Shown: piece by piece, positions 8,941-47,843 of the stretch | Numbering within the stretch: position 1 is the stretch's first letter | How the letters are laid out: each line of letters opens with the position of its first letter | Source: Escherichia phage vB_EcoP_SU10 | Direction: 5' to 3' (one strand) | Length of the DNA stretch: 64,000 bases | Sequence record: NC_027395.1 | Program-made: the position numbers and the translations under genes | Notes under the pieces: generated by a model | Databases searched by the model: none | The model's input: only the letters and a program-made list of their open reading frames with translations | Told to the model about the DNA's origin: nothing

Positions 8941-8970
8941 CCCTGCCTTCGGGCGGGGTTTTTTCGTTTT
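8941..8970 (+). terminator. Rho-independent terminator
   Basis: CCCTGCC-ttcg-GGCGGGG hairpin (UUCG tetraloop) followed by TTTTTTCGTTTT. Confidence 0.7.
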
Positions 8971-8992
8971 AAGACCTATACAAGCAAGTGTG

Positions 8993-9001
8993 TAATGTAT
9001 A
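8993..9001 (+). promoter_or_regulatory. TAATGTATA promoter-like element
   Basis: Exact 9-mer 33 nt upstream of ATG 9035; same 9-mer recurs upstream of other genes. Confidence 0.5.
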
Positions 9002-12197: not shown

Positions 12198-14369
12198 ATG
12201 GCTAGAGAATTAATGCCCAAATCTGGTATAATGATGCCTCATGTGGTTGTAACCAGAGATGCGGCTGTTGTTGGTGTTTCTACCGTAGATGGACAGGCAG
12301 GGGCTATTGACCTCACTGGAAAGTATCTACAGAAAACTGACGCAGCTGCTACCTACCAGACTAAAACAGAAGGCGCATCTAAAGATTTTGTGCTGGATTC
12401 AATTCAACCTATTATGTCTGGTGCTTTGTTCCGAGAAGATCCTTGGGTTGTGAACGACACACCTTTCCGCTCTACTGGAGCTAACGGAGTAGAGTCAGTG
12501 GATATGATGAAGGTCACTCCTGATAACTCAATTAAGATTGGCAGCTATGCTTCCTCGGTTCAAGGCGTAGAAATTCATTCTGCTGGTCGTCTTCAGGTTG
12601 TTGACCAGAATGACAGTGGTGTAGAAACTAAGTATCCAGTTTATTCTAAACGTTATCGTCCCGAGATTGAGGATTTACCTTTCGCTGCGATTGGTTCTTA
12701 TGTTAAAGACTCCAAAGGTCGGACTATCGGTGTTACTCGTACAGGGATTAACTCTGATATCAAACAGCTTACTCAGAAAGTAACTTTTACCCAACCTGTT
12801 ACTGTAGCAGATGCTGTAGGCGATTATGATGCAGTGACACTGAGGCAACTTCGTAACAGTGGTGGCGGTTCTGGTGGTCCTACCATGAGTGGTATCTCAA
12901 ACTTTGGTATCGGTGATTTCCATCTTCGTGACAGTCGTGCTTTCATCCCCGCCTTCGAGGTTGTGTCGGATGGGCAGCTTTTGAATCGTGCTGACTACCC
13001 AGATTTATGGGCTTATGCACAACTGCTATCCCCAATTGAAGACTCTCTTTGGTTGTCTAATATCTATCAGAGGGGTAGGTATTCTACCGGAAACGGTACA
13101 ACAACTTTCCGTGTTCCTGACCGAAATGGCATCCAAGAGGGGTCACTGAGAGCTTTATATGGCCGTGGTGATGGTGGTAATTCTGCTGCAAACGGTCAAG
13201 TGTTTGATTCTGCTGCACCGAACATCACATATGCGTCCCCTCACACAATGGTAACACTAGCCTCCGCTCCTGGGCAGGTGGCGACTAACGGGGCAATTCA
13301 ATCAATCACCTCTACAGACGATGTGGCTCCAGTGGGGGCTGGAGGTAAATACATATCCACAAACTTTGACGCATCGCGTTCCAGTCCTATTTATGGTCGC
13401 TCCACTGATGAGATTCTGACCCGTAACTTTGTTGGTGTTTGGACTATCCGTGCTCATGGTGGTTTTGTAGCAGCTAATACTTCTTGGTCTGTTATCAACA
13501 GGGACAGCGCAGCTCCGGCTTTAAACACTTCTGTAGTTGGTGGTAAGGTGGAATCTAAATACACTAACCCAACCTCCTCTCAATATGCTCGTATGTATAT
13601 TTCCTCTTCTTGGGGGAGTGTTTGTTCTGCCGTGATTGAAGCACAAGGTACAAGTACTCACGCTTATAAGTTTTATGAGGATGGCACTGTTGATTTTAGG
13701 CAGTCTGGTAAGACAAACCCATTCCGCATGTACACACCAACTGGAATTTGGACTGGACTGACGGATGCGGGGCCAAACAATTTAACCACCAATGGAATGG
13801 ATAGGGTGGCGATTTCTAGTGGCTCTGACACAGTGGTGCGTGGGTACTCTATTGGAGGATCTAAACCTAATGGTTATCCAACCAAGGTTGGGCATCATAT
13901 GTATTTGCCGGGAAATGACGCCTTCGGTATCGCCTGTACAACTATTGGAGGAGACAACGGAAGGTTCTGTCGATATTTTTACGACATAGACGGGCAGATG
14001 TATGGCTCAACTGATTATGGAAACTTTAGCTATACAAAGAGTGGTGTCTCGGATGAAAACCTGAAACATAACATTGTTGATATTGATGCAGAAAGAGCTA
14101 TTGAAGTAATAAAAGGACTGAAGTTCAAATCCTTTGTTTACAACGATGATGAGAAGAATCGATCTCGTCGTGGTATCATTGCACAGCAGGCAGAGACGGT
14201 AGAACCTCTGTATGTTAAGACTCGCAAATACCCAGGAATGGAGAAAGGCTCTCCAGAAATTGAGCAGAAAGAGCTAGACACTACTCCAATGCTCCTTGAC
14301 ACTATGCAAGTAGTTCAAGATCTTCTGAAGCGTATTGAAGTTCTGGAATCGAAGTTAGCAGAGAAGTAA
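12198..14369 (+). CDS. Tail fiber/spike with C-terminal intramolecular chaperone (peptidase S74-like) domain
   Basis: 723 aa; C-terminal SDENLKHNIVDID...FVYNDD motif typical of autoproteolytic chaperone domains; collar-like DYPDLWAY segment. Confidence 0.75.
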   Translation: MARELMPKSGIMMPHVVVTRDAAVVGVSTVDGQAGAIDLTGKYLQKTDAAATYQTKTEGASKDFVLDSIQPIMSGALFREDPWVVNDTPFRSTGANGVESVDMMKVTPDNSIKIGSYASSVQGVEIHSAGRLQVVDQNDSGVETKYPVYSKRYRPEIEDLPFAAIGSYVKDSKGRTIGVTRTGINSDIKQLTQKVTFTQPVTVADAVGDYDAVTLRQLRNSGGGSGGPTMSGISNFGIGDFHLRDSRAFIPAFEVVSDGQLLNRADYPDLWAYAQLLSPIEDSLWLSNIYQRGRYSTGNGTTTFRVPDRNGIQEGSLRALYGRGDGGNSAANGQVFDSAAPNITYASPHTMVTLASAPGQVATNGAIQSITSTDDVAPVGAGGKYISTNFDASRSSPIYGRSTDEILTRNFVGVWTIRAHGGFVAANTSWSVINRDSAAPALNTSVVGGKVESKYTNPTSSQYARMYISSSWGSVCSAVIEAQGTSTHAYKFYEDGTVDFRQSGKTNPFRMYTPTGIWTGLTDAGPNNLTTNGMDRVAISSGSDTVVRGYSIGGSKPNGYPTKVGHHMYLPGNDAFGIACTTIGGDNGRFCRYFYDIDGQMYGSTDYGNFSYTKSGVSDENLKHNIVDIDAERAIEVIKGLKFKSFVYNDDEKNRSRRGIIAQQAETVEPLYVKTRKYPGMEKGSPEIEQKELDTTPMLLDTMQVVQDLLKRIEVLESKLAEK

Positions 14370-14373
14370 GATA

Positions 14374-14392
14374 AGCCCCTTCGGGGGCTTTA
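14374..14392 (+). terminator. UUCG-tetraloop stem-loop (weak terminator)
   Basis: AGCCCC-ttcg-GGGGCT hairpin after tail fiber stop; short T-run. Confidence 0.35.
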
Positions 14393-14461
14393 GTAGTAAG
14401 TACCCTTAGTAAGTAATGAAACTAATATATCCCAAGAGGTTAATATATAGGAGACACTCAA

Positions 14462-14680
14462 ATGAAAATGATGAAACAAGCTGCATATGGTTTAATATGT
14501 TTAGGCGCAGGTGTTGTGGTATCCACCGCAGTTCCTGTAGGCGCAGTTCATCCATTAGTAACTGTCCCTGCTCCAGTAGAGAAGCTCAGCTCTCAATGTA
14601 AGCAGAGAACAATTCAAAATAACTTAGTTGTTATTTGCCCTGATGCTGAATCTAACGCTCTGAGAAAGATACTACCTTAA
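14462..14680 (+). CDS. Small single-TM membrane/secreted protein (72 aa); holin candidate
   Basis: AGGAGA RBS; N-terminal hydrophobic segment AAYGLICLGAGVVVSTAVPVGAV; immediately upstream of lysozyme. Confidence 0.45.
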   Translation: MKMMKQAAYGLICLGAGVVVSTAVPVGAVHPLVTVPAPVEKLSSQCKQRTIQNNLVVICPDAESNALRKILP

Positions 14681-14709
14681 TTTAAAGGGACTACAAAAGG
14701 AGGTTAGAA

Positions 14710-15201
14710 ATGGATAACGTCGCATTGCCACCTGTACAACTAAACTTAAGCCCAGCTGGAATGGAATTCATCATGAAGCATGAGGGTATGAGAACAAAGG
14801 CTTATAAAGATTCCGCAGGTATCTGGACGATATGTGTAGGGGCTACGCGCGATATGAATGGTTATCCGGTTAGACAAGGATTAACGTATTCTATAGAGGA
14901 TTGTCTAGCTCTGCTAGATAGAGACACACAAGACTCTGTTCGTGCTACTCAGAAGAACATAAAGGTTCCTTTACTAGTTCATGAGTTTGATGCACTCACT
15001 TCTTTCAACTTCAATGTTGGCAGTGGGGCTTTGAGCACATCTAAGTTAAGGAAGGTTATCAATGGAGAAGTGAAAGGGGATGTTTATTCCGAATTTCTTC
15101 GTTGGGATAAAATAACGGTCAGGGGAGAAAAGCAGAGAAGTCAGGGTCTTCATAACAGAAGGGTTGCAGAAGCTGATCTTTACACTGAAGGTAAATATTA
15201 A
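14710..15201 (+). CDS. Lysozyme (T4-type, GH24 family endolysin)
   Basis: 163 aa; E-x8-D-x5-T catalytic spacing in MKHEGMRTKAYKDSAGIWTICVG; AAGGAGG RBS. Confidence 0.85.
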   Translation: MDNVALPPVQLNLSPAGMEFIMKHEGMRTKAYKDSAGIWTICVGATRDMNGYPVRQGLTYSIEDCLALLDRDTQDSVRATQKNIKVPLLVHEFDALTSFNFNVGSGALSTSKLRKVINGEVKGDVYSEFLRWDKITVRGEKQRSQGLHNRRVAEADLYTEGKY

Positions 15202-15213
15202 TGGAGGTGCCTT

Positions 15214-16017
15214 TTGGCTATCGAAACTAATGCGGTAGTTATTACCGACTTAAACCCGCTCTATCCTAGAGACAGGGATTACATCTACGAAGGGGCGGCT
15301 CAAATCCGCCTCATTAAGCAAACGTTACAGAACACATTCCCCAATGTTACAGAACCGGTTGATATAGATTCTGACACCTTTAAGATTATGTCAGAGAAGC
15401 TCAAGTTTACTGGTGATGCAATGGATGTTGGTGGTCTTATGATCAAGAACGTTACTCCGGGAACTGGTGACAAGGATGTTGTTACTAAAGGCCAGATGGA
15501 AGCGTTCATGAAGAACTGGATGGAGAATAAGCTCTATCGAATTGGTTCTTACTACATCACTGAAGAAGATATTAACCCCGGTGATTCCATCTCCTTAGGG
15601 TTTGGCTCTTGGGCTAAAGTGACTGGTGTTATCATGGGTACTGGTGTAGTAAACCCTGATGGTTCTGTCCCTAATGCTCAGAGAGTTGAGTTCCAAGCAG
15701 GTGGTACTGGTGGTCGTGTCTTCAATACTATTCGAACTGAGAACGTACCTTTGATGACAGTTAATGGCTCCAGCTTCTCTCTATCCAGTAATACTCATAG
15801 TCACAATATGGTGTTTGGTCGTGGAGATGCTAGTGGTCATAACAGCTCACCAAACTGGTATAGTCCGGGTGGTGGTTACAGCCAGAGAACTGATAATGAC
15901 ACACATACTCATACAATCTCTGGTAGTGTAAGTCTTGGTCGTGATGATATTTCTCGTCAACCTATTAACACTTTGCCACCATTCAGAGCAGCTCACATTT
16001 GGAGACGTATTAGCTAA
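15214..16017 (+). CDS. Hypothetical virion/tail protein (267 aa; TTG start)
   Basis: GGAGGTG RBS 4 nt upstream of TTG; Gly/Ser-rich C-terminal half. Confidence 0.55.
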   Translation: MAIETNAVVITDLNPLYPRDRDYIYEGAAQIRLIKQTLQNTFPNVTEPVDIDSDTFKIMSEKLKFTGDAMDVGGLMIKNVTPGTGDKDVVTKGQMEAFMKNWMENKLYRIGSYYITEEDINPGDSISLGFGSWAKVTGVIMGTGVVNPDGSVPNAQRVEFQAGGTGGRVFNTIRTENVPLMTVNGSSFSLSSNTHSHNMVFGRGDASGHNSSPNWYSPGGGYSQRTDNDTHTHTISGSVSLGRDDISRQPINTLPPFRAAHIWRRIS

Positions 16018-20057: not shown

Positions 20058-21089
20058 ATGGCATACGGAATATGGACACAACCAGTAGGGCCGGGGCCAG
20101 CAATCCCCGCTCCCTTATTTATTGATAGCGGAAGCACTTTCCCTCAGTTCAAGAATAGTATAAGAGGGAGTTTTAACTTTAATGGGGCTGGGAGATCTTT
20201 CCCTATTAGTGGATGGGATGGCAGTGGTCAGATAGTTATTGTTCCTACCGGTTCTTTATGCTGGCAATGGGAAGTCCCTCCTAACCTAGTTCCTGATGTT
20301 TATTGTGTGAATAATATCTACGTAGAAAACAGTTCCTCTTTTAGAGTTACTCTGAATCAGAACCCCGGCAGGAACCCCTTATTTGACTGTGGGTTCAACG
20401 TATATCAAATATGGCCTAGAGCGGATAGGAATTACGGAATTACCTTTTCTAATACAGCAGACTACTTCTCGATATCTGATAGTGGGGTCGTCGGTCAATG
20501 TATTTGGGCTTGGCAGGGGACCATAAACAATGCCCTTCAGATACCAAATATCGGTGGGTTCAATATGACCAATGCTGTTGTGTTTGCTAATTGGTCTGAT
20601 GGAGGGATAGGACTATCTTATACCTCTGATGACAGGGTTATTCGTGTTTATCAGAACAGACCTTACATAAACGGCAACACTAACGAGGGTGGTTCTGTGT
20701 TTGCTAGAGTTGCAGTATTCTGCAATGGAGCAGGAGTTCCGGAACATAATGGAGGTTTGAATATTTATTCTCCGGGTACCACGCAATGTGTCTTCTCTAC
20801 TAACAGAACACCTTTCACTGTGGATACTTTTATAGGCTCAGGAGGTGGTAACACTGGAATGACATACCCTATGATACCTCTTACCTCTGGAATAGGTGCG
20901 ATAAAAGGCCGAGGCAGTGGATGGAGATATCAGCAAATGAGATCTCACACCATGAGTGGTTCTACGATAGGAACGGGCTATGGAAGGTATTTATTTCAGT
21001 GGAATCAGAATTACGACCTAGGAGCTGATACTGTAGTTAATTTATCAGTTCCTGTAATAAATGCAGCTAAGGTTTTTGCTGGACTATAA
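20058..21089 (+). CDS. Structural protein (343 aa, Gly-rich)
   Basis: Tightly coupled to upstream gene; no motif recognised. Confidence 0.55.
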   Translation: MAYGIWTQPVGPGPAIPAPLFIDSGSTFPQFKNSIRGSFNFNGAGRSFPISGWDGSGQIVIVPTGSLCWQWEVPPNLVPDVYCVNNIYVENSSSFRVTLNQNPGRNPLFDCGFNVYQIWPRADRNYGITFSNTADYFSISDSGVVGQCIWAWQGTINNALQIPNIGGFNMTNAVVFANWSDGGIGLSYTSDDRVIRVYQNRPYINGNTNEGGSVFARVAVFCNGAGVPEHNGGLNIYSPGTTQCVFSTNRTPFTVDTFIGSGGGNTGMTYPMIPLTSGIGAIKGRGSGWRYQQMRSHTMSGSTIGTGYGRYLFQWNQNYDLGADTVVNLSVPVINAAKVFAGL

Positions 21090-21101: not shown

Positions 21102-21884
21102 ATGGCAATTAATATGGGTATTGAAGAACTAGACCCAATGGTTCAACAGGCTTCAAAGAAGTATGGGATTCCTGCTGCTTTGATTCATGCTGTAATCCAA
21201 AGAGAGTCTAGTGGTCGTCCTACAGTAGCCTCTGGAACTGGTCCTGTAGGTTTAATGCAGATCAGTAAAGGGTTGGCTAAAGACTACGGTTACAAACTAG
21301 AAGACAGACTTGACCCAGCAAAGAATATTGATATGGGTGCTCGTTATATTCGAGATAACTTAAAGGCTTTTAATGGTGATGTTAAGAAAGCAATGGTTGG
21401 TTATTCAGAAGGTATTGGTGGAGCTAAGCAAATGTTCGCTGGTAAAAAGGGATTTACACCTCAAGCCCTTGACTCAATGAACAACAAACACTTTCTTCCT
21501 TTCTATGGTGATGCAGCTTCTCAGATTGCTAACCCTGTTGGAGCTTTGCAAGCTGTTCAACCAGTCAACCAGTTTAGTTCTGACTTACTAGACAGAGAGA
21601 AAGCCGCACAAGCTCCAACTCAGGCAGAGATTGCTGCTTCTAAGACAGGTGCTTTAGGCGGAAATCCAGTAGAGTTTTACTCTGATGAAGTGCAGGAAGG
21701 CGAAAACCAGAAACCTCAACAGAACTTTGGTAATGCAGTATTAGGGGTAGCTGCTATGCTTGCTGGTAAACCTCCCACTTCTCAAACAGTTCAGAGGGCA
21801 AGTGCACCACATGCAGCAGGTTCTCAGTACAGTCCACAAACACAAGCAGTGCTCAGACGTTTGGCTAGCATTGGTGTAAAGTAA
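21102..21884 (+). CDS. Lytic transglycosylase (SLT domain) virion protein
   Basis: 260 aa; ALIHAVIQRESSGRP...GLMQI resembles SLT catalytic region. Confidence 0.8.
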   Translation: MAINMGIEELDPMVQQASKKYGIPAALIHAVIQRESSGRPTVASGTGPVGLMQISKGLAKDYGYKLEDRLDPAKNIDMGARYIRDNLKAFNGDVKKAMVGYSEGIGGAKQMFAGKKGFTPQALDSMNNKHFLPFYGDAASQIANPVGALQAVQPVNQFSSDLLDREKAAQAPTQAEIAASKTGALGGNPVEFYSDEVQEGENQKPQQNFGNAVLGVAAMLAGKPPTSQTVQRASAPHAAGSQYSPQTQAVLRRLASIGVK

Positions 21885-23950: not shown

Positions 23951-25606
23951 ATGCAACAGACAACTTACGCTCAGGTCAGAAGTCGTGACCCGAGAAATAC
24001 TTTCTATGGTGTTAATCCGGGAGCGGCTTCGGCCTCTCCTTATATGGCTAGACCAACTCAGACAGCAGATATTTCTATGTATCAACGTCCTGCTGTACCT
24101 TCATCTCTTGCGGGTCTTGTCTCTCAGGCAGAAGAAGATCAGAATGCTATGATTAATCCGGGATTCCAGCAACGTCTTATGGAACAGCAGAATCAAGGAA
24201 CTCCTACCAGTCTTCAGGGTATTGATATTGGAGCACCGGCCCCTGTATCAGCTAATCCTAACCTATCCACTGATCAAGGTTTACAGGATGCTGGGCTTAT
24301 GCCTAGTGACCCTCTTCCGGTAACACCTCCTCCTAAACCACTAGAAGCTGGTCCTATGGAGTTTACTCCTTCTCAGGTGGAACAGGCACAAGGTGTGATT
24401 AATACTCTTGCTCAAGGACAAGACGCTGGTGATGGAATGACTGCTGCTACTCGTGCTAAAGATCAGGAACGCGTCAACAACGATATCTTGCAAGTTGCGA
24501 AAGCTAAAGACCCTTCGGAAGCTTGGAACAAACTACAGAAAGAACCATTCTATCAGAACTCTAGTTTCTACACAGGTTTGATGGGTGTAGGTCTTTCCAT
24601 TATGTCAGGTAAGTCTCCTATTGAAGCTTTCCAGATTGGTCAGGGAATGGCTAATCAAGATGAGACTAAGAAGCAACTGGAAGCTAACCGTGATGCTCTG
24701 ATTGAACAAGGCTTCTCTCAAGACTCGATCGCAGCTGCTATTGCTAACGGAGACCCATCTCTTCTGAAGATGAAAGCTGTAGACCCTGCTCAGAAAGAAG
24801 CTCTGTATGCTGCTCGTGAAGAACGTCAGAATGCTGAATGGGATAGACGTCAACAGATTCAAGAGCAGGCTATGCGTGAACGTGCCGAGGAAACTCGTCG
24901 TGCTGCTGAAAAAAGAACTGATATGAACTTTGAACGTCAGAAAGAGTTGATTGGCTATCGTGATAAAATTAAGGCTGAACGTGCTGAACAAGTTGCTCAA
25001 AGTTTCAACTTCCCCACGAAAGAAATTCGTAACGCTCAGAATACAGCTGAAGGTACTATCGCTAAGCAGTGGGCAGAGAAAGGTGGCCTGTTTAATCAGT
25101 CTAATAAAGACTTGGACTTGGCTGATAAAGCTGTTAAGGACAAAGACTATCAGACGGCCCGTTCTGCTTACATGCAGGCTATCATGAACTCCGCAAGGGC
25201 TGAAATTGGTTCTACTCGTTCTCTCACTGAAGAAGATTTGGGGCATTTTGCAGAAGACCCATCAATCATTATCCGTGTAGGTAACAAGTTTGCTCTGAAG
25301 TCTGGATGGCGTCCTACTGATGCTGCTCTTGCTTATGCTCGTAAACAGGCTAACGTCGGTCACACCTCTGCTATGAAAGGTGTTGCTGATGCTAAGAGAG
25401 ATACTATCAACGCTTATATTGGTTCTGGTATGGATAAGAAGAGAGCTACTGCATTGGTTAACCGTGCAATTCCTTCTGGTGGTTTCTATGACCCTCTTGG
25501 TGCTTTCTCTGAAGAAGCAGAGGAGGCAGTTGGTGGTGCAGCAACTAATCCTAAACTGAACGGTGCTTTATCGGCTGTCGAAGACACTAGCTGGTTCACG
25601 CAATAA
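23951..25606 (+). CDS. Hypothetical virion protein (551 aa)
   Basis: Within structural module; charged helical C-terminal half. Confidence 0.55.
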   Translation: MQQTTYAQVRSRDPRNTFYGVNPGAASASPYMARPTQTADISMYQRPAVPSSLAGLVSQAEEDQNAMINPGFQQRLMEQQNQGTPTSLQGIDIGAPAPVSANPNLSTDQGLQDAGLMPSDPLPVTPPPKPLEAGPMEFTPSQVEQAQGVINTLAQGQDAGDGMTAATRAKDQERVNNDILQVAKAKDPSEAWNKLQKEPFYQNSSFYTGLMGVGLSIMSGKSPIEAFQIGQGMANQDETKKQLEANRDALIEQGFSQDSIAAAIANGDPSLLKMKAVDPAQKEALYAAREERQNAEWDRRQQIQEQAMRERAEETRRAAEKRTDMNFERQKELIGYRDKIKAERAEQVAQSFNFPTKEIRNAQNTAEGTIAKQWAEKGGLFNQSNKDLDLADKAVKDKDYQTARSAYMQAIMNSARAEIGSTRSLTEEDLGHFAEDPSIIIRVGNKFALKSGWRPTDAALAYARKQANVGHTSAMKGVADAKRDTINAYIGSGMDKKRATALVNRAIPSGGFYDPLGAFSEEAEEAVGGAATNPKLNGALSAVEDTSWFTQ

Positions 25607-25626
25607 GACCTAAGTCCTGCCTTCTA

Positions 25627-25635
25627 TAATGTATA
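25627..25635 (+). promoter_or_regulatory. TAATGTATA promoter-like element
   Basis: Exact 9-mer 38 nt upstream of ATG 25674. Confidence 0.5.
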
Positions 25636-25673
25636 TAGGGGGTAGGACATTTTTATTTATAAAAGGAGACGTT

Positions 25674-28600
25674 ATGGCTAACATTAAACCGTGGGAAGAA
25701 GCTTCCAAAGCTCCTGCGTATCTGAATGCCTCTCCGGAGCAACAAGCTCAAATGAGAGAACAATATAAGGCAGCAGGTGGCTCTATTCCTGAGGAACAAC
25801 CAGTAGCACAACCACAACAAGAAGAACGTGGTGCTATAGGCGAGTTTGCTCAAGGTGTGTCAAATGCTCTTCAATCTGGTGGTGCAAATATTGCAGCTAG
25901 TGCTGCTAAAGGTATTGGTGGTTTAGTTGAGATTGGTGAGAATCTAGCTGGAGCACAGACTAGTTATGGTAAGCGTATCCAAGAGAACTCTCAGAACCTT
26001 CTGAAAGAACGTATGGATAAGATTGAGGATGGGATTGGCAAAACTGTTGGTCAGTATGCTGGCGTTGCTGGTGATATTGGTATGACTGTTGCTAACCCAT
26101 TGGCTGCTGCTGCTATCATCGCAGGTCGTGAGACGGGTCGTGCATATGCAGACCAAACCCCTGAAGAGGGAGAAGATAAGTCTATTCTAGATGCAGCCTT
26201 AGTTGGTGGTGCTAACTATGCGGCCCAGAGAATCCTTCCGGGTGCTGTCGGCACAGCTGAGTCCACACTTGGACGTATTGGTCAGAACGTTGCCAGTAAC
26301 GCAGTGGCTGGTGCTAAAGGTGGTGCTCTTGTTGGTGCTGCTGAAGTTCAGAACAAGTATGGGGATGACAATGATCTAGCTAAGACATTGGAAGGTGTTA
26401 TCGAAGAGGGGGCTATGGGTGCTGCATTTGGTGGTGCAGTTGGTGGGGTTCATGGTTTGATTAGCCGTCCGGATTCTGTTGTTTTCAAGAATACTCCAGA
26501 GTATGCGAAGACTGATATTGCTGCTGATGACGAACTGATTCGTAGTGCTAAGAATGTTGATGAACTGAAAGAGGCTTACTCTAAAGCTGAAACTGCTAAC
26601 GCTGCTTCTGCTCTGAACCTCCTCGATGAGAATGGGTTCCGTATTACAGATGCTGTTGCTGTAGATTCTCCTGCTGCTCAGCGTATTCTTAACACTGACC
26701 AAGCTCGTGCTGAGAAAGCTGCTTCTGTTCAGAAAGAACACTCCAACATTCCGGGCCTTAATCCTTTAGCTTCTCCTGCTAAGACTCGTGGTAAAGCTTT
26801 CGCTGATAACGAGCACAACCAGAAACAGGCTGTTGCTATGAAGGATGCGATGGCTGACTATACCAAGGATAACACTAAAGCTCTTACAGATGTTTTAGAT
26901 AACCTAGACCGTGAATTAACCTCTCTCCGAGCTTCTGGTGATTTTACTGGTAGTCCGATTGATATTAAGAATCGCACACAAGCTGACCGTGACTTCATTG
27001 ATGCTTACAAGACTTTCTACAATGAAGCAAATCGATTCAAAGCTCGTGAAGGTGAAGACTTCAATAACTTTGTAGAGAAAGCTGCTGAACTACAGAAGAT
27101 GGCTGATAATGTTTCTCCAGAGATGAAGAAAGCTATTGGCGGGTTGAAGAAACTGAAGGGTATGCCTGAAGGTTTTAATCCTATCCAAGATGCTTACACT
27201 CTGAACAATACAGCTAAATTTATGAGTAACCAAGATCGCGGTTGGACTTCCCTGACTGATGATGGTTTCCGTGAAGCTTCTTCTCCTAGCCTGGTAATGA
27301 ACACTCTCGGTGCTGCTAAGTATGCTCTGAATCGCTTCTCTTCTCAGCGTGCTCGTTCTCAACGTGTTAAGCAACAAGAGTCTAACAGTGAAGCTATCCG
27401 CTCTCTGGCTCGTGGTGATTTGGAAGTTGCTCGTGCTAAATCTACTGCTAATGAAGCTCGTGCTAAGATGGAAGAAGAACCAGCTGTTGATGACATTAAA
27501 TTTAAGACGCAAAATGATGTAGAAACCGAACCGGTTCGGGAGCCTTCTTCTAGTACTGTGACGGAAGAAAATCTTCCTTCTTCTGCTCCTCAAGAAACCC
27601 CTCTTACAGCTCGTGATTTAGTTGCGCAAAGACGTGCTATCCGTCAGGCTGAACAGCGTCGCGCTGAAGAAGAGGCAGCTGCTGCTCAAGAAGTTCCGGT
27701 TGAACAAGCTCCACAGGCTGAACCTCTCCCTGCTCGTAATCCTTTAGAGGAACGTCGTGCAATGGAACAGCAACGTGCTCAAGAAGAGGCCTCACAAGCT
27801 CCAGAACCAACCGTAGAGGAACCAACGGTCAAAGCTGAGCCATTACCTGCCCGTGCTCCTAAAGCTCCTAAGGAAGCTGTACAGGACGTTAAACCGGCAA
27901 GTGGTGTAGAACGTTTAGCTGCTATGTCTAGTGCTGCTCGTCAGGCTACTAAAGATCGTGCAGAACGCTTTGCTCGTTCTCTGTATTCTAAGGCTGCTAA
28001 GGCTAAAGCTACTGCTGAAAACTTCTTGGCTTATAAGGGCGATCCTAAGGAATTGATGCGTCGTATTCGTCAGGAAGATAATGCTATCAACACTGAACGT
28101 CATGAAGAAATGGCTCGTAACCAGCTGGCTTCTCAGCAAGGTATTGCTACTGCTAAGAACAACACTGTACGAACTAGTTTTGCTGAATGGGTTAAGGAAC
28201 GTGGTCTGCCAGAAGACATTGCTACTAAGGCATTACGTGCTGAAGAGAAAGGTTTAGGTGGGAACGTAACTAACTTGGATAGTCTGAAACGTCGTGCTGA
28301 AAGGTTGTATCAGAAGCAGCGTGAGGATGAGTTTGATAGATTATATCAACAAGCTCTAGAAGAGAACAAAGCTTTCGATAAGAAGGATGCTCCTAAACTG
28401 GTTGACCAGAAGAAAGAGCTTCAGTCTGAGATTGATGCTTTGATTGATTCAGAACCTTTACGTCCTGCTCAGAAAGATGCTATGCGTAAGCTGATGAATG
28501 ATTTTGTAGATGGGAAGTTTAAATCTTCAGAGAAGGCTGGTAGGGAAGAGGCTTTGGAAGTTGGTCAGATGAAGGATATTTGGGATGGGTTTATTAACAC

Positions 28601-30095
28601 CTATAACAGAGAAGTAAATGCCTTCAACAAAGCTAACAAGAACTCTCAGTACGAAGCTGCTGCTAAGCATTTACAGGCTCGTGAAGAACGTCTTGCTACC
28701 CTCAGGAAAAAGGCTCAGGCTCGTTCGGATGCTAAGGCTGCTGTTGAGAATGAACGTAAAACTCTAGAGGCTATTGCAGCTCAGAAGAGTGAGATTGAGA
28801 AGATGATGGAAGGTTTACCTAAACCTGTTCGTGAGGCTCAGGAATCTCGTACTCTGAAACAGTTGGCTGCTCACCACGATAAGAACTCTCCAGTTCCTCC
28901 AGAGAAGTTCCGTAGTTATATTGAACGTATCCACAATGCCGAGTCAGATTACCTTGATCGTCAGCGTCGTTTAACTGATGCAGAGGAAGATGCTCGTCAG
29001 GCTAAGTGGAACAAGATGTATGAGCAAGCGGAAGAGATGAACCGTAAGTTTGATGTGGACAAGAGAGTTAAGCGCAGTGAAGAGCTTAAAGCGGCCCAAG
29101 AGCGTGAGAATGATCTTATGGCAGTACAACGTCAACGTGATGACATTCATCGCCGCCTGATGCGTACTATGGAAGATAAGGGCATATCTAGAGAGGATGC
29201 TGAAGCGTTTGCCGGCTCCTATATGGATAACCGTTATGCACTTCTTGAGAAACCTATGACTCCGACTGAACATCAGAATGCTCGTTCTCGTATCGAAGCT
29301 GATGTTGAGAAATTCGCTAAGAAGTATGAATCAATGACTCCTATTGAGAAAGAGATTGTTAAGGTTACTGGAGATACTGAAGGTAAGCTTGATAACTTGG
29401 ATGCGGATACTAGGAAGGCTATTGAGGAGGCTCAGAAGGTTGACTCTGATATTAAGAAACTGCAAGAGGAAGAATTGGAGATGGAGAAGATTCGTTCTGC
29501 TCTGCCTGATGATGAAAAATCTCAAGCAAATTCTGATATCTTGGAAAGCATTAAACAACAGGAAGAGGTCTTTGCTGATAAAGTAGAGAAAGCTTTCTTG
29601 AGTGGGAAAAGCTTGGATGAGTTGGCTAGTGTGGCTGAAGTTTTAGACAGGGTTCATGGTGCAGATAAGGCTGGTAACAACCGTCGCTTTGTACGTGCAT
29701 TGCAGACTGCTGCTGAAAACAAGAAGAAGTATGGTGATAATCCAGTAGCTTGGTTTAGTGCTGATGATTACTCTGCCATTGCTAAACTTGGTGCTTCTTC
29801 CGCAGGTGGTAACAAATCCAGAGCACTGGAGAAGATCTTTGGTTCTACAGCTGAACAGGCTAAGAGTAAGTTGCTTGGTAGGGATGATGTAGCGAAGATG
29901 AGACGTGTGATTGAAGAGAACCCTGATATTAAGATTCCTTCTTACAAGACAACGAATCGTACTGAGTACTTGCAATTCTTGGAGAAGTTTAATGACGAAG
30001 GGAAGCCGAAGATTAAACGTGGCTCATTGTCAGAGAAGCTTGAACGAAGTAAGCGTCAATCGAGACTCCGTGTAAGAGTTCGACCTAAGGAGTGA
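25674..30095 (+). CDS. Very large virion protein (1473 aa), candidate internal/ejection protein
   Basis: AAGGAG RBS before ATG 25674; A/E/K/R-rich with long helical segments; last gene of + module. Confidence 0.6.
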   Translation: MANIKPWEEASKAPAYLNASPEQQAQMREQYKAAGGSIPEEQPVAQPQQEERGAIGEFAQGVSNALQSGGANIAASAAKGIGGLVEIGENLAGAQTSYGKRIQENSQNLLKERMDKIEDGIGKTVGQYAGVAGDIGMTVANPLAAAAIIAGRETGRAYADQTPEEGEDKSILDAALVGGANYAAQRILPGAVGTAESTLGRIGQNVASNAVAGAKGGALVGAAEVQNKYGDDNDLAKTLEGVIEEGAMGAAFGGAVGGVHGLISRPDSVVFKNTPEYAKTDIAADDELIRSAKNVDELKEAYSKAETANAASALNLLDENGFRITDAVAVDSPAAQRILNTDQARAEKAASVQKEHSNIPGLNPLASPAKTRGKAFADNEHNQKQAVAMKDAMADYTKDNTKALTDVLDNLDRELTSLRASGDFTGSPIDIKNRTQADRDFIDAYKTFYNEANRFKAREGEDFNNFVEKAAELQKMADNVSPEMKKAIGGLKKLKGMPEGFNPIQDAYTLNNTAKFMSNQDRGWTSLTDDGFREASSPSLVMNTLGAAKYALNRFSSQRARSQRVKQQESNSEAIRSLARGDLEVARAKSTANEARAKMEEEPAVDDIKFKTQNDVETEPVREPSSSTVTEENLPSSAPQETPLTARDLVAQRRAIRQAEQRRAEEEAAAAQEVPVEQAPQAEPLPARNPLEERRAMEQQRAQEEASQAPEPTVEEPTVKAEPLPARAPKAPKEAVQDVKPASGVERLAAMSSAARQATKDRAERFARSLYSKAAKAKATAENFLAYKGDPKELMRRIRQEDNAINTERHEEMARNQLASQQGIATAKNNTVRTSFAEWVKERGLPEDIATKALRAEEKGLGGNVTNLDSLKRRAERLYQKQREDEFDRLYQQALEENKAFDKKDAPKLVDQKKELQSEIDALIDSEPLRPAQKDAMRKLMNDFVDGKFKSSEKAGREEALEVGQMKDIWDGFINTYNREVNAFNKANKNSQYEAAAKHLQAREERLATLRKKAQARSDAKAAVENERKTLEAIAAQKSEIEKMMEGLPKPVREAQESRTLKQLAAHHDKNSPVPPEKFRSYIERIHNAESDYLDRQRRLTDAEEDARQAKWNKMYEQAEEMNRKFDVDKRVKRSEELKAAQERENDLMAVQRQRDDIHRRLMRTMEDKGISREDAEAFAGSYMDNRYALLEKPMTPTEHQNARSRIEADVEKFAKKYESMTPIEKEIVKVTGDTEGKLDNLDADTRKAIEEAQKVDSDIKKLQEEELEMEKIRSALPDDEKSQANSDILESIKQQEEVFADKVEKAFLSGKSLDELASVAEVLDRVHGADKAGNNRRFVRALQTAAENKKKYGDNPVAWFSADDYSAIAKLGASSAGGNKSRALEKIFGSTAEQAKSKLLGRDDVAKMRRVIEENPDIKIPSYKTTNRTEYLQFLEKFNDEGKPKIKRGSLSEKLERSKRQSRLRVRVRPKE

Positions 30096-34450: not shown

Positions 34451-34451
<1 letters not shown>

Positions 34452-34711
34452 TATTCTATTCCACGTTCTTTCAGAGCTTCTAACAATCCGTTGTGATTGG
34501 CAGCACATTCTGTGTACTGGTCCTGATACCACTCCAACGTAGTGGCTAGTGCTTTTCCTTGAGCACTCTCTAAAAGAGGTAGGTCAACCCTACATTCAGC
34601 TTTTAGGTTTGTTGGTAAGGGCATTGATTGCCTGCTGTTGTCGCTCGTTGAACAAGCTGACATACTCATCACTAGCGCAGACATTATAAAAAACTGGTTT
34701 AGTTTTCTCAT
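34451..34711 (-). CDS. o-spanin (Rz1-like outer-membrane lipoprotein)
   Basis: Signal peptide with lipobox-like MSAC, Pro-containing mature part with 3 Cys; starts inside Rz-like ORF in another frame. Confidence 0.5.
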
Positions 34712-34970
34712 AATGCATCTCTTTATAAACGGTTTCCGTGTTCTTCTTCCAGTTAGATAAACCGGTAAGAACTCTCTGAGCAACTTCATCAGCTGCTCTA
34801 TTTCTTTCAATCTCTAACTCTTGCTGGTGCTTCTCTTTGTCCAGATTACTGCTGTCTGTTTGATATTCGTTAAACTTCATACCACCAAAGAATACAAGAG
34901 CTGAGAAAACGATAAACCCTAAGTTATCACTTAACGTGTTTTGCATGTTGTCTCCAACGAAAAAAGCCAC
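34596..34970 (-). CDS. i-spanin (Rz-like)
   Basis: N-terminal TM (LGFIVFSALVFFGG) then charged coiled-coil; contains Rz1-like start. Confidence 0.5.
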   Translation of the reverse strand: MAFFVGDNMQNTLSDNLGFIVFSALVFFGGMKFNEYQTDSSNLDKEKHQQELEIERNRAADEVAQRVLTGLSNWKKNTETVYKEMHYEKTKPVFYNVCASDEYVSLFNERQQQAINALTNKPKS

Positions 34971-35004: not shown

Positions 35005-35418
35005 TTATATGAATTTCTGCATACCTTTGATACGAGGGTTATCATCACCAACTCTCGATTTACAGTAAGCGATAAAAGATTCAGTATTGAGGTTATCTTT
35101 TTGGGAACCCCACTGAAGGTTGTCTGCTCTATTGTTGCTCGGATTATCATCCAGATGCATAACAACAGCGTTAGGAAAAGGTTTCTCACCGTGAAAAGTC
35201 TCACACACTAAGATATGAATCCTTTTCTTAAACTTTCTTTTCTTGTTTACAAACACCATTCTTCCATCTTTCTCTCTATATCCGCTATATGGTTTTCCTA
35301 CGAAAAGCCTAACTCCACCATTATTCATTATGGCTGTGAAAGGCTTAATCTTAACTCTACCAAAAGATGATACGGAAAGGAAATCATAATAGGGGTGATC
35401 TTTCCAGACTTCTTCCAC
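35005..35418 (-). CDS. HNH homing endonuclease
   Basis: SSFGRV...HILVCETFHG...VVMHLDDNPSNNRADNLQWG motifs. Confidence 0.75.
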   Translation of the reverse strand: MEEVWKDHPYYDFLSVSSFGRVKIKPFTAIMNNGGVRLFVGKPYSGYREKDGRMVFVNKKRKFKKRIHILVCETFHGEKPFPNAVVMHLDDNPSNNRADNLQWGSQKDNLNTESFIAYCKSRVGDDNPRIKGMQKFI

Positions 35419-35427
35419 TATTTATCC

Positions 35428-36174
35428 TCAAAATGGGCTATCGTTGTCGTCTTCGTAAGTAGAAGCAGGCTCTTTATCAATCGTAGGGATTGAAGGGGTA
35501 GCTTCTTTCTGTTCTGTTTCAGAAGCACGAGTAATTTCACGACCAGCCAGAGGCATGTTCTTAGCGTCATTAGCTTGAGTAAGCAGGTTGCGCTGGAACG
35601 GGAACATCAGTTGATAGGATGCTACGTTCTCATCGGTTTCAGCATATGGTTCGAAGAATACCATAGGACTACGAGCTTCACCAACTGCTGCACGATATTT
35701 GGTTGGGATTGGAGAAATGGTCTTGATGGAGTTTTTAACTTCACCAGCTTTGTTAGTGTAAGAGTTAACCAGAATGTTAACAGGCTGACCTAACAGCACA
35801 TCCTTGAACCAAGACAGATCACCTTTCAGTGCTTGAATACTTGGGTCAATCATCTTGCAAAGATCAAGAATACCAGAGTTCTTAGCTCGTGGGTTTACAT
35901 CATAACTCTTGAACTGGCAAGCCGGACGTGGTTCTAATGCCTTACCATCGGAATCTTTACCAGTAGCATCAACACCAATCAGCTCGAAAGCTAAATCCAT
36001 ACGGAAAGTCGGATTCTTAGGAGTTACTGCTTTGGTCTTCGGGTCAATCCAAGGGTCACGATTGTGAACACCCAAACCTACTACACGAACGATACGTGCT
36101 TCGTACTCACCATCAGGGATTACATCGTAGTTGGATTTACGGGAAGCAGTTGCGATAGTTGGAATCATAGACAT
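35428..36174 (-). CDS. Single-stranded DNA-binding protein (putative)
   Basis: 248 aa with acidic C-terminal tail ending DDNDSPF, like SSB tails; in replication module. Confidence 0.55.
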   Translation of the reverse strand: MSMIPTIATASRKSNYDVIPDGEYEARIVRVVGLGVHNRDPWIDPKTKAVTPKNPTFRMDLAFELIGVDATGKDSDGKALEPRPACQFKSYDVNPRAKNSGILDLCKMIDPSIQALKGDLSWFKDVLLGQPVNILVNSYTNKAGEVKNSIKTISPIPTKYRAAVGEARSPMVFFEPYAETDENVASYQLMFPFQRNLLTQANDAKNMPLAGREITRASETEQKEATPSIPTIDKEPASTYEDDNDSPF

Positions 36175-36233
36175 ATTTTAATTTCCTTATTTAATTTGAA
36201 AGATTGTTGCTCTCTTTGAGCGGTTATGTATAG

Positions 36234-36242
36234 TATACATTA
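36234..36242 (-). promoter_or_regulatory. TAATGTATA promoter-like element (minus strand) upstream of SSB gene
   Basis: Exact 9-mer on minus strand about 59 nt upstream of ATG 36174. Confidence 0.5.
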
Positions 36243-36305
36243 CGCTTATACCGATAAGAGTACTATATAATATAAGTATCTTTGGTAGTAGATATAACAC
36301 ACTAG

Positions 36306-36314
36306 TAATGTATA
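36306..36314 (+). promoter_or_regulatory. TAATGTATA element on + strand inside minus-strand intergenic region
   Basis: Exact 9-mer; no + strand ORF downstream. Confidence 0.4.
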
Positions 36315-36411
36315 TATTGTATAGCTGATAAAGTTATTGCAGGCTTGTATATTGGGCAATTCACAGAATCCCTTGCAAGTACCGAAGGGCAGGAGACACC
36401 TGCGAGATAAA

Positions 36412-36475: not shown

Positions 36476-36720
36476 TAAAAGAATATTAATTACTTATTAC
36501 CTAAATAATTAACTAACTTACTTAAACCAAATTCAATAAGAATAGATAAAAAGATTATTCCTAAGAAAGCTAAGAAGTAAACAATATAAGTTACCATTCA
36601 AGTAAACCTTTAAAGTTAGATTGTTCTACTATCCTCTGATAACGAAGATTAGAATCAGCTTGTTTCTTTAACATCTCATTATATTGATCTCTGATAGAGT
36701 CTTTATGTACTACAGGTTCT

Positions 36721-37604: not shown

Positions 37605-37805
37605 TCATACTTCTTCCTCATATTCCCAATTTCTTTCATAATATCCAGAGTTATAGTTTAGGGCGCACTTCTCGGCCTCTTCTATGTCGTCAGTGTTTAG
37701 GATATTTACCCATCCTCCAACTTCATCAAAACCTTCTTCTACTTCGTTAAACCATACACTATACTTTTTCATCGAGAGGTTCTTCCCCAATCTTTTACAT
37801 AGCAT
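37605..37805 (-). CDS. Hypothetical protein (66 aa)
   Basis: ORF only. Confidence 0.4.
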   Translation of the reverse strand: MLCKRLGKNLSMKKYSVWFNEVEEGFDEVGGWVNILNTDDIEEAEKCALNYNSGYYERNWEYEEEV

Positions 37806-37941
37806 CGACCGTTAACCCACTTCGTCTCTGATTTAAACTCTTGAGACAATCTCATTTCACAGTCTTCTCTACTGGCATCTCCTCCGATATCAATCAGATA
37901 TAGGAATAGAGCTATACCTAAAGCCCAAAGAATTATCTTCT

Positions 37942-38334
37942 TCATCGAATCACCAAAGGCTCTTCAGAGTACACAGGAGCGGCTATTTCTACAGGAGGTG
38001 CTGCCCTAAGGTCATTAAGTCTTACACCCTTCAGCATCCCATCTAGGTGGTCTTTCTTAGGGATTCCAACAGGGAAGTCGTCAATCCAGATATCTACAAA
38101 GAAACCTAACTGGCGACATACGTCATCTTTCTGAACACCATTACAAAAGATGACAGGGATTTGCAGAGTCTCTGCATCATAGAGGATATCCACGTTATCA
38201 TAACCATTAGGCTCTGAGAAACGGAAAGTCACGAATCTTACATCATGTCCATACCCTTTCATCAAACCTATCACATCTCTCCACAGTCGTCTGTCTGCTG
38301 TGTAAGTGTCATCATAATCTAAACCAATATTCAT
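37942..38334 (-). CDS. HAD-like phosphatase/nucleotidase (start moved to ATG 38334)
   Basis: IGLDYDDT (DxDxT) and WIDD motifs; AAGGA RBS; track TTG start lies in terminator T-tract. Confidence 0.5.
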   Translation of the reverse strand: MNIGLDYDDTYTADRRLWRDVIGLMKGYGHDVRFVTFRFSEPNGYDNVDILYDAETLQIPVIFCNGVQKDDVCRQLGFFVDIWIDDFPVGIPKKDHLDGMLKGVRLNDLRAAPPVEIAAPVYSEEPLVIR

Positions 38335-44281: not shown

Positions 44282-44526
44282 TTCACAACCTTAAATTTGA
44301 ATGTTGTTGGGTGATAATAATGCAATCTATTGATAGTGTGTTTTGTTTCAAGATATATCCTGCAAGAGTGGCACATGACATGGGTCAGACCAGTTACAGG
44401 ATTAGGTTTAAAGTTGGCGACAGTCTTCTCTTTATTACAGAAGCTACAGACTTTCTTTTCCATCTTTTCTCCAGTGGTCAACGAATTGCTGAAACACTTT
44501 ACGATCAAATGTGAAATTACGAGCAA
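44278..44526 (-). CDS. Zinc-ribbon small protein (82 aa; TTG start in track, ATG start possible at MEKK)
   Basis: CSFCNKE ... CHSCRIY. Confidence 0.45.
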   Translation of the reverse strand: MLVISHLIVKCFSNSLTTGEKMEKKVCSFCNKEKTVANFKPNPVTGLTHVMCHSCRIYLETKHTINRLHYYHPTTFKFKVVK

Positions 44527-44677
44527 TTCCGCATTCTCTAAAAGTGGCAGGCATATAATCTACATCACCTTCAGATGTATGACCATAGACTTGAATAAGC
44601 TTCTTAATCTTATCTTTCTCTCTTCGAGGAAGCATTCTAAATGCCTCCTGAATATCTGTAATATGTTTTATCTTCAT
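44444..44677 (-). CDS. Hypothetical protein (77 aa)
   Basis: ORF only. Confidence 0.4.
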   Translation of the reverse strand: MKIKHITDIQEAFRMLPRREKDKIKKLIQVYGHTSEGDVDYMPATFRECGIARNFTFDRKVFQQFVDHWRKDGKESL

Positions 44678-44689
44678 AAGGAATTCCTG

Positions 44690-44824
44690 CTAATCCTCTG
44701 AGTTGTGGGAACAGCAATATTCACATACTCCGCAACATGGACAAATTTCTACACTTGGGTCATATGCATCATCAACTGTCATCCCACACTTGGTGCAGAA
44801 CACATCGTCATCTTCTTCCAACAT
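44690..44824 (-). CDS. Cys-rich small protein (44 aa), not in ORF track
   Basis: 9 Cys in 44 aa (CTKCG, CPCCGVCEYCC); ATG overlaps upstream stop (TAATG). Confidence 0.4.
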   Translation of the reverse strand: MLEEDDDVFCTKCGMTVDDAYDPSVEICPCCGVCEYCCSHNSED

Positions 44825-45072
44825 TAATTCTCCAAACAAGAATCATTCATCAGTAGCTCCAAACTATCAAGTGTGTAGTAATAACCAAAGAATGGGGCTG
44901 TTGACTTGGAAACCTTTTTATCAAAAAGAGATTGAGAAAGATTTATTTCTACTCCAGCATCTTCAAGCTGTTGTTTTGTGGGGTATGTAATGAAAGAGCA
45001 AAGCACTTCTGTGTACTCCCCTCTGTCTGTCTCTTCAACACGACTCAGAATCCAAATACTTTTACTAGCCAT
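44824..45072 (-). CDS. Hypothetical protein (82 aa)
   Basis: ORF coupled to ThyX gene (1-nt spacer). Confidence 0.45.
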   Translation of the reverse strand: MASKSIWILSRVEETDRGEYTEVLCSFITYPTKQQLEDAGVEINLSQSLFDKKVSKSTAPFFGYYYTLDSLELLMNDSCLEN

Positions 45073-46029: not shown

Positions 46030-46209
46030 TTATGCAGTCAGGAGGTGAAGCAGGAATGGGATAACAACAGCTACGATAACCATGATAGTTGATGCTGTTT
46101 GAATCTCACCTTTCTTATCAGGAGTTTCTTCAATAAGCTTACCAGAAGCCCAATAAATACCACCACCAATAAAGATAGCCCAAATACCCCATACGATTGC
46201 TGATAACAT
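46030..46209 (-). CDS. Small two-TM membrane protein (59 aa), not in ORF track
   Basis: AAGGA RBS; two hydrophobic helices (LSAIVWGIWAIFIGGGIYWA and MVIVAVVIPFLLHLL). Confidence 0.4.
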   Translation of the reverse strand: MLSAIVWGIWAIFIGGGIYWASGKLIEETPDKKGEIQTASTIMVIVAVVIPFLLHLLTA

Positions 46210-47646: not shown

Positions 47647-47843
47647 TAGTAATAAACCTTACTGTTGGCAAGAAAAGCACCTTCGCTATTCACAATAGCT
47701 TTTCCAATAGTGATCTTACCTGACAGACCTATCCCCTTAAAAGTTTTCTTAATTCGACGAGCGTGCTCTCGAGTATTAACAAAATCTACAGAGTTTATGT
47801 CACCTGTCTTGTTGTCATGTACACGAACAATCCACTTTTTCAT
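47646..47843 (-). CDS. Small protein, tandem paralog 1 of 3 (65 aa)
   Basis: See paralog 3. Confidence 0.5.
   Translation of the reverse strand: MKKWIVRVHDNKTGDINSVDFVNTREHARRIKKTFKGIGLSGKITIGKAIVNSEGAFLANSKVYY

Follow-up and report, generated by a model that had tools for sequence, protein, structure and literature searches.

Genes at the locus

Two small genes, ORF72 and the gene for a T4-type lysozyme, lie between the long tail fiber gene (on the 5' side) and the short tail fiber gene (on the 3' side) of the phage genome that we analyzed (Table 1). The window, that is, the whole stretch of 64,000 nucleotides, is from a Kuravirus (phiEco32/SU10-like), and its nearest match is SkaterBoy_Bas90, with 98.5% nucleotide identity. 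A 2-kb query around the locus matched 97 phage records, all of them from Escherichia or Shigella podophages of the phiEco32/SU10 type; these belong to the Gordonclarkvirinae (Kuravirus, Suseptimavirus, and Nieuwekanaalvirus). The plus-strand block at 741-30095 contains the packaging, head, tail, and ejection genes, with the adaptor, proximal fiber, and nozzle genes in the wider surroundings of the ORF72-lysozyme pair. From about 30.3 kb onward, the minus strand carries the middle genes and then the early genes.

An earlier note on this DNA, made from the sequence alone, had placed ORF72 and the lysozyme at the same coordinates and had proposed that the lysis genes are dispersed. Both points hold: ORF72 and the lysozyme lie among the tail genes, whereas the minus strand carries the spanin genes, at a distance of 19.25 kb from the stop codon of the lysozyme. 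This arrangement has been published before for SU10, YF01, Paul, and vAPECPW12 (PMC7881722, PMC4281155, PMC9965538, PMC12733307); in vAPECPW12, the holin and endolysin genes are about 19 kb from an o-spanin gene on the complementary strand (PMC12733307). The layout is thus already known, and it is ordinary, indeed textbook, for Kuraviruses.

TABLE 1 Features of the window that are discussed in the text
Feature	Positions	Strand	Remarks
Distal long tail fiber	12198-14369	+	Peptidase_S74 chaperone domain; upstream of ORF72
Hairpin AAGCCCC-TTCG-GGGGCTT	14373-14390	+	GC-rich, conserved, just past the long tail fiber stop codon
Conserved 19-nt block GTAATGAAACTAATATATC (also written GTAATGAAACTAnTATATC)	14413-14431	+	Between the hairpin and the ribosome-binding site
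TAATATATA, element from the earlier note	14441-14449	+	Probably not functional
ORF72, putative class III-type holin	14462-14680	+	72 aa; GGAG 8 nt before ATG
GH24 (T4/P22-type) muramidase endolysin	14710-15201	+	163 aa; AAGGAGG upstream
Short tail fiber	15214-16017	+	Gp10_C; downstream of the lysozyme
SLT lytic transglycosylase, SU10 gp20 ejection protein	21102-21884	+	PF01464, 83 bits
o-spanin (Rz1-like) lipoprotein	34451-34711	-	86 aa; lipobox MRKLNQFFIMSALVMSMSAC before S; signal ...VMSMSAC
i-spanin (Rz-like)	34596-34946 (or to 34970)	-	phrog_1152, E = 1.9e-37; N-terminal TMD and periplasmic domain
Exact TAATGTATA phage sigma factor motif	36234-36242	-	Upstream of the unit with the spanins and the sigma factor gene
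Small membrane ORF	36490-36597	-	Not listed in the earlier note
Small membrane ORF	37769-37945	-	Not listed in the earlier note
ORF59, 2 TMDs	46030-46209	-	Middle-gene cluster; phrog_9296, unknown function; weaker rival holin candidate
Small membrane ORF	62484-62636	-	Not listed in the earlier note
ORF155, 2 TMDs and basic C-terminal tail	62863-63330	-	phrog_944; accessory early-region cassette

The spanins are an overlapped two-component pair

The two spanin genes have the features of an overlapped two-component system: the i-spanin has a transmembrane domain (TMD; LGFIVFSALVFFGG), the o-spanin has a lipobox, and the o-spanin gene starts inside the i-spanin gene and extends beyond it. The last 116 nucleotides of the i-spanin gene (34596-34711) are shared with the o-spanin gene. 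In the survey of Kongari et al. (PMC6139136), the spanins of PhiEco32 are listed in the JH2 i-spanin family (section "Overlapped") and in a four-phage o-spanin group. The earlier note had seen no holin beside the spanins, and we agree: no membrane ORF adjoins the spanin genes, whose neighbors encode a macro-domain protein, an HNH endonuclease, and a 248-aa protein without a TMD.

The lysozyme is a soluble endolysin

The lysozyme matches PF00959 with 111.1 bits (the cutoff is 22.3 bits) and consists of a single catalytic domain. Among proteins of known structure, it resembles the endolysins 8app (E = 2e-27) and 7m5i (E = 3e-25). Its translation contains the catalytic triad of GH24 enzymes, which is E25, D34 after 8 residues, and T40 after another 5 residues. 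The N terminus (MDNVALPPVQLNLSPAGMEF) is hydrophilic: KD19 reaches at most 0.95 in the protein, and all 17-residue windows stay at or below 1.4. We found no weakly hydrophobic N-terminal domain of the kind that marks SAR endolysins, and R of phage 21 (PDB 3hde) aligns only from its own residue 35, to residue 25 onward of the lysozyme. Because its N terminus is hydrophilic and carries no signal, the lysozyme is expected to be cytoplasmic and to require a holin that forms holes.

ORF72 is a conserved membrane protein

ORF72 begins with MKMMKQ, followed by one TMD (about residues 7-29), a variable linker, and a nearly invariant C-terminal domain (residues 40-72) that contains Cys46 and Cys59. Residues 7-39 are uncharged and reach a KD19 of 2.15, so that ORF72 is a small protein with a TMD, as holins are. 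Only ORF72 has a transmembrane-grade segment among the 22 proteins encoded on the late strand (KD19 of 2.15 versus at most 1.49 for the rest).

ORF72 is identical (100%) to gp16 of phiEco32, which is annotated as a "putative holin," and the record for phage Paul labels the ortholog "holin class III." It also matches phrog_11161 ("holin"; E = 2.8e-50), whose profile has 72 positions and aligns with ORF72 from end to end. This was the only match in PHROGs, and ORF72 had no match in Pfam or NCBIfam, so it does not fall into a characterized holin family. In searches of 5.8 billion protein clusters and of a set of 1.8 billion cluster representatives, homologs were restricted to phages of the Gordonclarkvirinae type. 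An HMM built from the ORF72 alignment added two true homologs among the 1.8 billion representatives (P0024 and P0025), both in the same genomic context. Three other hits were set aside: P0026 and P0027 are repeat proteins that the HMM search returned as false positives, and P0028 (76 aa) has just its N-terminal 34 residues in common with ORF72 and is probably a frameshift or a chimera.

The ORF72 gene ends 29 nucleotides before the lysozyme gene, and the order of the two is kept in all 97 of the related phage records. Every distant homolog that we found (P0023, which is 58% identical to ORF72 and lies on an 87-kb contig, P0024, and P0025) also precedes a lysozyme gene, despite different fiber genes upstream. 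ORF72 thus adjoins an endolysin gene, as is expected of a holin gene, and it lies on the late structural strand and is probably expressed late.

Both ORF72 and the lysozyme gene are genuine and evolve under purifying selection. Across nine diverged genomes, pN/pS was 0.22 for ORF72 and 0.12 for the lysozyme. Within ORF72, the linker had a ratio of 0.44 and the TMD one of 0.32, whereas residues 40-72 had 0.12, which equals the value for the lysozyme. Since pS was similar in all three regions (approximately 0.55-0.6), the constraint acts on the protein rather than the RNA. The invariant residues of the C-terminal part are K41-L-S, C46-K-Q-R, and I51-Q-N-N-L-V-V-I-C59-P-D.

The C-terminal 33 residues are hydrophilic and mildly charged (5 K/R and 3 D/E) and are predicted to be periplasmic. 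Given K2 and K5 before the TMD, the neutral flank after it, and the invariant Cys pair in the C-terminal domain, the protein likely has its N terminus inside and its C terminus outside, which is the class III arrangement. An AlphaFold2 model from 16 sequences, which is of low confidence (pLDDT of 53.5), has a helix at residues 4-21 and a beta-hairpin (47-51/54-58) that is bracketed by the two Cys. A conserved, Cys-bracketed periplasmic hairpin together with a variable TMD is an unusual pattern among small holins. We also considered whether MKMM might be a dual-start motif like that of lambda S, and rejected this, as many orthologs have L, I, or T at positions 3 and 4.

Transcription signals

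The earlier note had also reported a near-consensus element, TAATATATA, upstream of ORF72, at 14434-14442. It actually lies at 14441-14449, and we rejected it as a promoter. First, such matches are no more frequent than expected: the window contains 18 one-mismatch matches to TAATGTATA, versus 18.3 expected by chance from shuffled sequences. Second, the element is not conserved and was not present in Paul, Bas86, EK010, TH42, or EP335. Third, it is too near the ATG: transcription starting approximately 11.5 nucleotides past its center would begin after the GGAG, so the ribosome-binding site would be lost.

The phage sigma factor gp36 of Kuraviruses acts at middle and late promoters whose core, AATGTA, is centered at -11.5 (PMC12276001). 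Exact TAATGTATA motifs are found in the window at 8993 (before the adaptor gene), at 25627 (before the gene for a 163-kDa protein), and in the middle region at 36234 (minus strand), 36306 (plus strand), and 43026 (minus strand). According to the SU10 paper, SU10 has just three late promoters, none of which was mapped before the holin gene. A sigma-70 scan of 14200-15400 identified nothing upstream of ORF72.

Two other features between the long tail fiber gene and ORF72 are conserved. The hairpin is present in 10 of the 12 relatives that we inspected; of the other two, one (L003) forms a hairpin from another sequence, and the other (L015) has no intergenic region. It is a candidate for a weak terminator or for a structure at an RNA 3' end. 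Within the 19-nt block, GTAATGAAA does not vary across the three genera (Kuravirus, Suseptimavirus, and Nieuwekanaalvirus) and TAnTATATC hardly varies, and the divergent relative L016 has an exact AATGTA core in the corresponding block. The block is probably the promoter or a regulatory site for the unit that starts with ORF72. Either read-through of the hairpin or initiation at the block would thus drive the expression of ORF72 and the lysozyme, along with that of the tail and ejection genes that follow them as far as 25.6 kb. On the other strand, the spanins and the sigma factor gene appear to share a unit behind the motif at 36234-36242.

Which protein is the holin?

The earlier note expected the holin to be one of three membrane proteins: ORF72, ORF59, or ORF155. 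Of these, ORF72 fits best, ORF59 is a weak rival, and ORF155 is excluded because it is an accessory cassette. ORF72 is the best candidate because it is the sole late-strand protein with a transmembrane-grade segment, because its gene comes before that of the lysozyme in all 97 records and in every distant homolog found, and because it is under purifying selection. From these properties of the sequence, we consider ORF72 to be probably, though putatively, the holin of this phage.

Functionally, the phage has a canonical set of a putative holin, a soluble endolysin, and a two-component spanin, with the genes dispersed. As the first two genes past the conserved hairpin and the 19-nt block, ORF72 and the lysozyme would be cotranscribed late with the downstream tail and ejection genes. 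ORF72 would insert into the inner membrane with its N terminus inside and its C terminus outside, so as to have one TMD and a small periplasmic domain, which is probably a beta-hairpin with a Cys46-Cys59 disulfide. As ORF72 accumulates, it would form holes in the membrane, and the cytoplasmic GH24 lysozyme, which has no signal sequence, would exit through them and cleave the peptidoglycan. The overlapped spanin pair, expressed from a separate unit on the opposite strand, would then disrupt the outer membrane.

Since phrog_11161 matches ORF72 from end to end and its homologs are confined to one group of phages, the "holin" label may be self-referential, and it may trace back to a positional guess in the phiEco32 record. 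The label on the orthologs of phiEco32 gp16 reflects position and one TMD only, has been passed through about 100 genomes, and is putative. By the general definition (Young), a holin opens lethal holes in the membrane at a programmed time and thereby releases the endolysin, and energy poisons can trigger it; our literature search did not identify a functional test of any Kuravirus holin.

A broader proposal is that ORF72 founds an uncharacterized family, specific to phages of the Gordonclarkvirinae type, whose members are either minimal class III holins ("mini-T") or SAR-anchored or secreted periplasmic regulators of lysis that are not holins. We put this forward as a less likely reading. If the mini-T version is true, then hole formation or its timing would rest on the disulfide-stapled periplasmic beta-hairpin (CKQRTIQNNLVVIC) more than on the TMD. 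If the regulator version is true, then the real holin of Kuraviruses has yet to be found.

More specifically, ORF72 might be a regulator or accessory protein that faces the periplasm, like RI of T4, with the true holin encoded elsewhere, for instance by ORF59. We consider this unlikely. The TMD of ORF72 is 48% Gly, Ala, Ser, or Thr, as in SAR domains, and the conserved S21-T22-A23 that follows the first 14 hydrophobic residues fits the -3/-1 pattern of signal peptidase and might be a cleavage site. However, the hydrophobic stretch runs on past these residues, with at least 25 uncharged residues in all homologs of ORF72, and the invariant residues of the segment (Y9, G10, C13, G17, P25, V26, and A28) suit a functional transmembrane helix better than a disposable signal. 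Also, the homolog P0025 lacks a basic N-terminal region. The strong purifying selection on residues 40-72, the strongest within ORF72, and the two invariant Cys in this region suggest a specific interaction in the periplasm, and ORF72 has no highly charged cytoplasmic tail like those of class I and class II holins; both would suit a regulator. However, an RI-like antiholin requires a holin with a periplasmic domain, and the loop of ORF59 has just 17 residues.

ORF59 itself is strongly conserved across Kuraviruses: we found it in at least 72 phage records, all of them Kuravirus-like. The spanins show that the middle cluster of this phage can house lysis genes. However, ORF59 lies between the genes for thioredoxin and a Dps-like protein, among genes of nucleotide metabolism and without lysis genes as neighbors, and the protein ends inside its second TMD, with no charged tail. 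As a holin it is a weak rival to ORF72. The earlier note had called it unannotated; relatives do annotate it, as a hypothetical protein (Bas90_0063; phrog_9296). Both ORF59 and ORF155 are encoded on the minus strand, which the earlier note did not mention.

The lysozyme and the virion

The earlier note suggested that the lysozyme might double as a virion-associated enzyme. An enzyme of this kind, piercing the cell wall, would account for the location of the gene among those for the tail. We find this very improbable. The position between the long and short tail fiber genes is the sole point in its favor, and the placement of the lysozyme among the tail genes can be attributed to shared late transcription. 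In contrast, the protein is missing from two virion proteomes of SU10, a close relative. In Supplementary Table 1 of a study that examined CsCl-purified SU10 virions by mass spectrometry and cryo-electron microscopy, the entries for ORF14 (Holin) and ORF15 (Lysin, 163 aa) read "In virion: no / Detected by MS: no" (PMC9509320). Similarly, a cruder, PEG-precipitated preparation of SU10 contained gene products 11-13, 16-18, and 20-24 as well as many nonstructural proteins, but gene products 14 and 15 were not detected (PMC4281155). Furthermore, the lysozyme has no structural or anchoring domain beside its catalytic domain, and the virion already contains a peptidoglycan hydrolase, the SLT ejection protein gp20. 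Gp20 was detected in SU10 virions (PMC4281155) and is released upon ejection. The virion-borne peptidoglycan hydrolase is gp20, not the lysozyme.

Other membrane proteins in the window

ORF155 is almost certainly not the holin. Its architecture is holin-like, in that it has two TMDs and its C-terminal tail is very basic. However, it lies in the early region, it is found in 28 phage records versus 97 for ORF72 and the lysozyme, and it has homologs in 7-11-like Salmonella phages that lack this lysozyme. It is also missing from viable close relatives, including SkaterBoy, the closest, where an unrelated 71-aa gene sits precisely in its place while the two genomes share 98.9% identity in the lysis region; ORF155 therefore cannot serve as the essential holin.

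Besides the three small membrane ORFs that Table 1 adds, we considered a DUF6453 "membrane protein" (20058-21089) and rejected it, as none of its segments is of transmembrane grade (maximum KD19 of 1.42). The plus-strand ORFs at 44330-44990, 47665-47880, and 53067-53282 have no match in PHROGs and are therefore probably shadow ORFs.

Comparison with other lysis systems

The closest counterparts are in phages of the phiEco32 type. The pairs gp16 ("putative holin") and gp17 ("lysis protein") of phiEco32, gp14 and gp15 of SU10, gp12 and gp13 of YF01, and CPT_Paul_014 and CPT_Paul_015 of Paul are orthologous to ORF72 and the lysozyme and occupy the same position, with the long tail fiber gene on one side and the short one on the other. 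The spanins of these systems are at the same distant position on the minus strand. Beyond this layout, the window has a 426-nt insertion of an HNH endonuclease beside the spanins and the ORF155 cassette; otherwise, it is essentially the same.

Scattered lysis genes are also common in other virulent phages, such as T4 and T7. In T4, the genes e and t and the spanin genes are scattered, with t not adjacent to e. The T4 holin, T, belongs to class III: it has one TMD, its N terminus is inside and its C terminus outside, and its periplasmic domain contains a disulfide. T is a protein of 218 aa, with a cytoplasmic N terminus of 34 residues and a periplasmic domain of 163 residues. Like T, ORF72 has a single TMD, a constrained periplasmic domain with a Cys pair (given the predicted topology), and a soluble T4-type lysozyme as its partner. 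Unlike T, ORF72 would have about 6 cytoplasmic and about 33-40 periplasmic residues, and its gene adjoins the endolysin gene; we detected no sequence similarity between the two proteins.

The antiholin of T4, RI, has a SAR N terminus and a small periplasmic binding domain, and its partner is the periplasmic domain of T. Like RI, ORF72 is a small protein whose N-terminal segment is weakly hydrophobic and whose periplasmic domain is conserved. However, RI is not encoded beside the endolysin and needs T as its partner; in the window, no such partner is evident, and RI has no sequence similarity to ORF72.

In T7, the holin gene 17.5 directly follows the tail fiber gene 17 in the late structural operon, the amidase gp3.5 is encoded far away, and the spanins are gp18.5 and gp18.7. 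As in T7, the window is from a virulent podophage with dispersed lysis genes, in which a small gene for a putative holin with a single TMD directly follows a tail fiber gene. But in T7 the wall hydrolase is remote and the spanins are near the holin, whereas in the window the endolysin gene is next to that of the putative holin and the spanin genes are far off; the proteins of the two phages are unrelated.

Implications for annotation

What is of interest beyond the layout is the holin assignment of a lineage-confined family of proteins of about 70 aa, which is still putative. Kuraviruses are frequent candidates for phage therapy and now infect engineered K-12 strains (BASEL collection).

Some current annotations of these lysis genes should be corrected. 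The "SAR-endolysin" label in the record for phage MN03 is wrong: it is unfounded, as there is no SAR-type N terminus. In addition, the o-spanin is miscalled or shortened in pharokka-type annotations. The annotation of SkaterBoy, for example, has a shortened "hypothetical" gene at the position of the o-spanin.

Promoter motifs and the start of the 163-kDa ejection-protein gene

The two exact late copies of TAATGTATA, the motif for the phage sigma factor, lie upstream of the adaptor gene and of the gene for the 163-kDa protein. Both are preceded by a common upstream element, TAAGACCTA, at a spacing of exactly 17 nt, which may serve the C-terminal domain of the phage sigma factor as a -35-like element. 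For the 163-kDa ejection-protein gene (25629-30095), mechanical ORF calling puts the start at 25629, within the promoter motif. An ATG about 45 nt downstream of 25629 is preceded by AAGGAG, and this ATG is the true start.

In addition, TAATGTATA-type motifs are clustered on both strands within 100 nt (36224-36323), in the intergenic stretch that lies upstream of the unit with the spanin genes. This cluster may represent divergent promoters or a regulatory hub.

Sigma-factor motifs and the homing-endonuclease gene (window coordinates)
Feature	Position	Strand	Remark
TAAGACCTA with exact late TAATGTATA	8953-9001	+
TAAGACCTA with exact late TAATGTATA	25587-25635	+
TAATGTATA-type motif	36234	-	36224-36323 cluster
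TAATGTATA-type motif	36306	+	36224-36323 cluster
One-mismatch TAATGTATA	36224	+	36224-36323 cluster
One-mismatch TAATGTATA	36315	+	36224-36323 cluster
HNH/NUMOD4 homing-endonuclease gene	35005-35418	-	carried by the 426-nt insertion

Lysis genes

Directly upstream of the i-spanin gene is a 426-nt insertion (35006-35431) that carries the homing-endonuclease gene. The insertion is missing from the closest relative, Escherichia phage SkaterBoy (98.5% identical), in which the flanking sequences are contiguous. The o-spanin of SkaterBoy is mis-annotated: Bas90_0031 is a 57-aa "hypothetical protein" whose start was placed past the lipobox. The full o-spanin ORF in the window (34451-34711, minus strand) includes the lipoprotein signal, MRKLNQFFIMSALVMSMSAC, and overlaps the i-spanin gene.

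The N-terminus of ORF72, the putative holin encoded before the lysozyme, reads MKMM (14462-14473), which resembles the dual-start (holin/antiholin) motif of lambda S. This is not a conserved feature, since many orthologues have L, I, or T at residues 3 and 4. P0028, a 76-aa protein from the representative library, has residues 1-24 in common with Kuravirus ORF72; beyond these, its sequence diverges and forms a second hydrophobic stretch. This protein is probably a chimeric or frameshifted call. The holin in the SU10 supplementary table is also 76 aa long (PMC9509320).

Other membrane-protein candidates

The DUF6453 protein (20058-21089) was labeled "membrane protein / moron" by pharokka. We found no TM-grade segment in it (maximum hydrophobicity, as KD19, of 1.42). 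Of the proteins encoded in the tail and ejection block, it alone went undetected in the proteome of PEG-precipitated SU10 (PMC4281155).

The early region shows a cassette swap (62868-63322 versus 319-535 of the comparison sequence, L014). SkaterBoy has an unrelated 71-aa gene in place of the 155-aa two-TMD protein (phrog_944), homologues of which are also found in 7-11-like Salmonella phages and in one Aeromonas phage.
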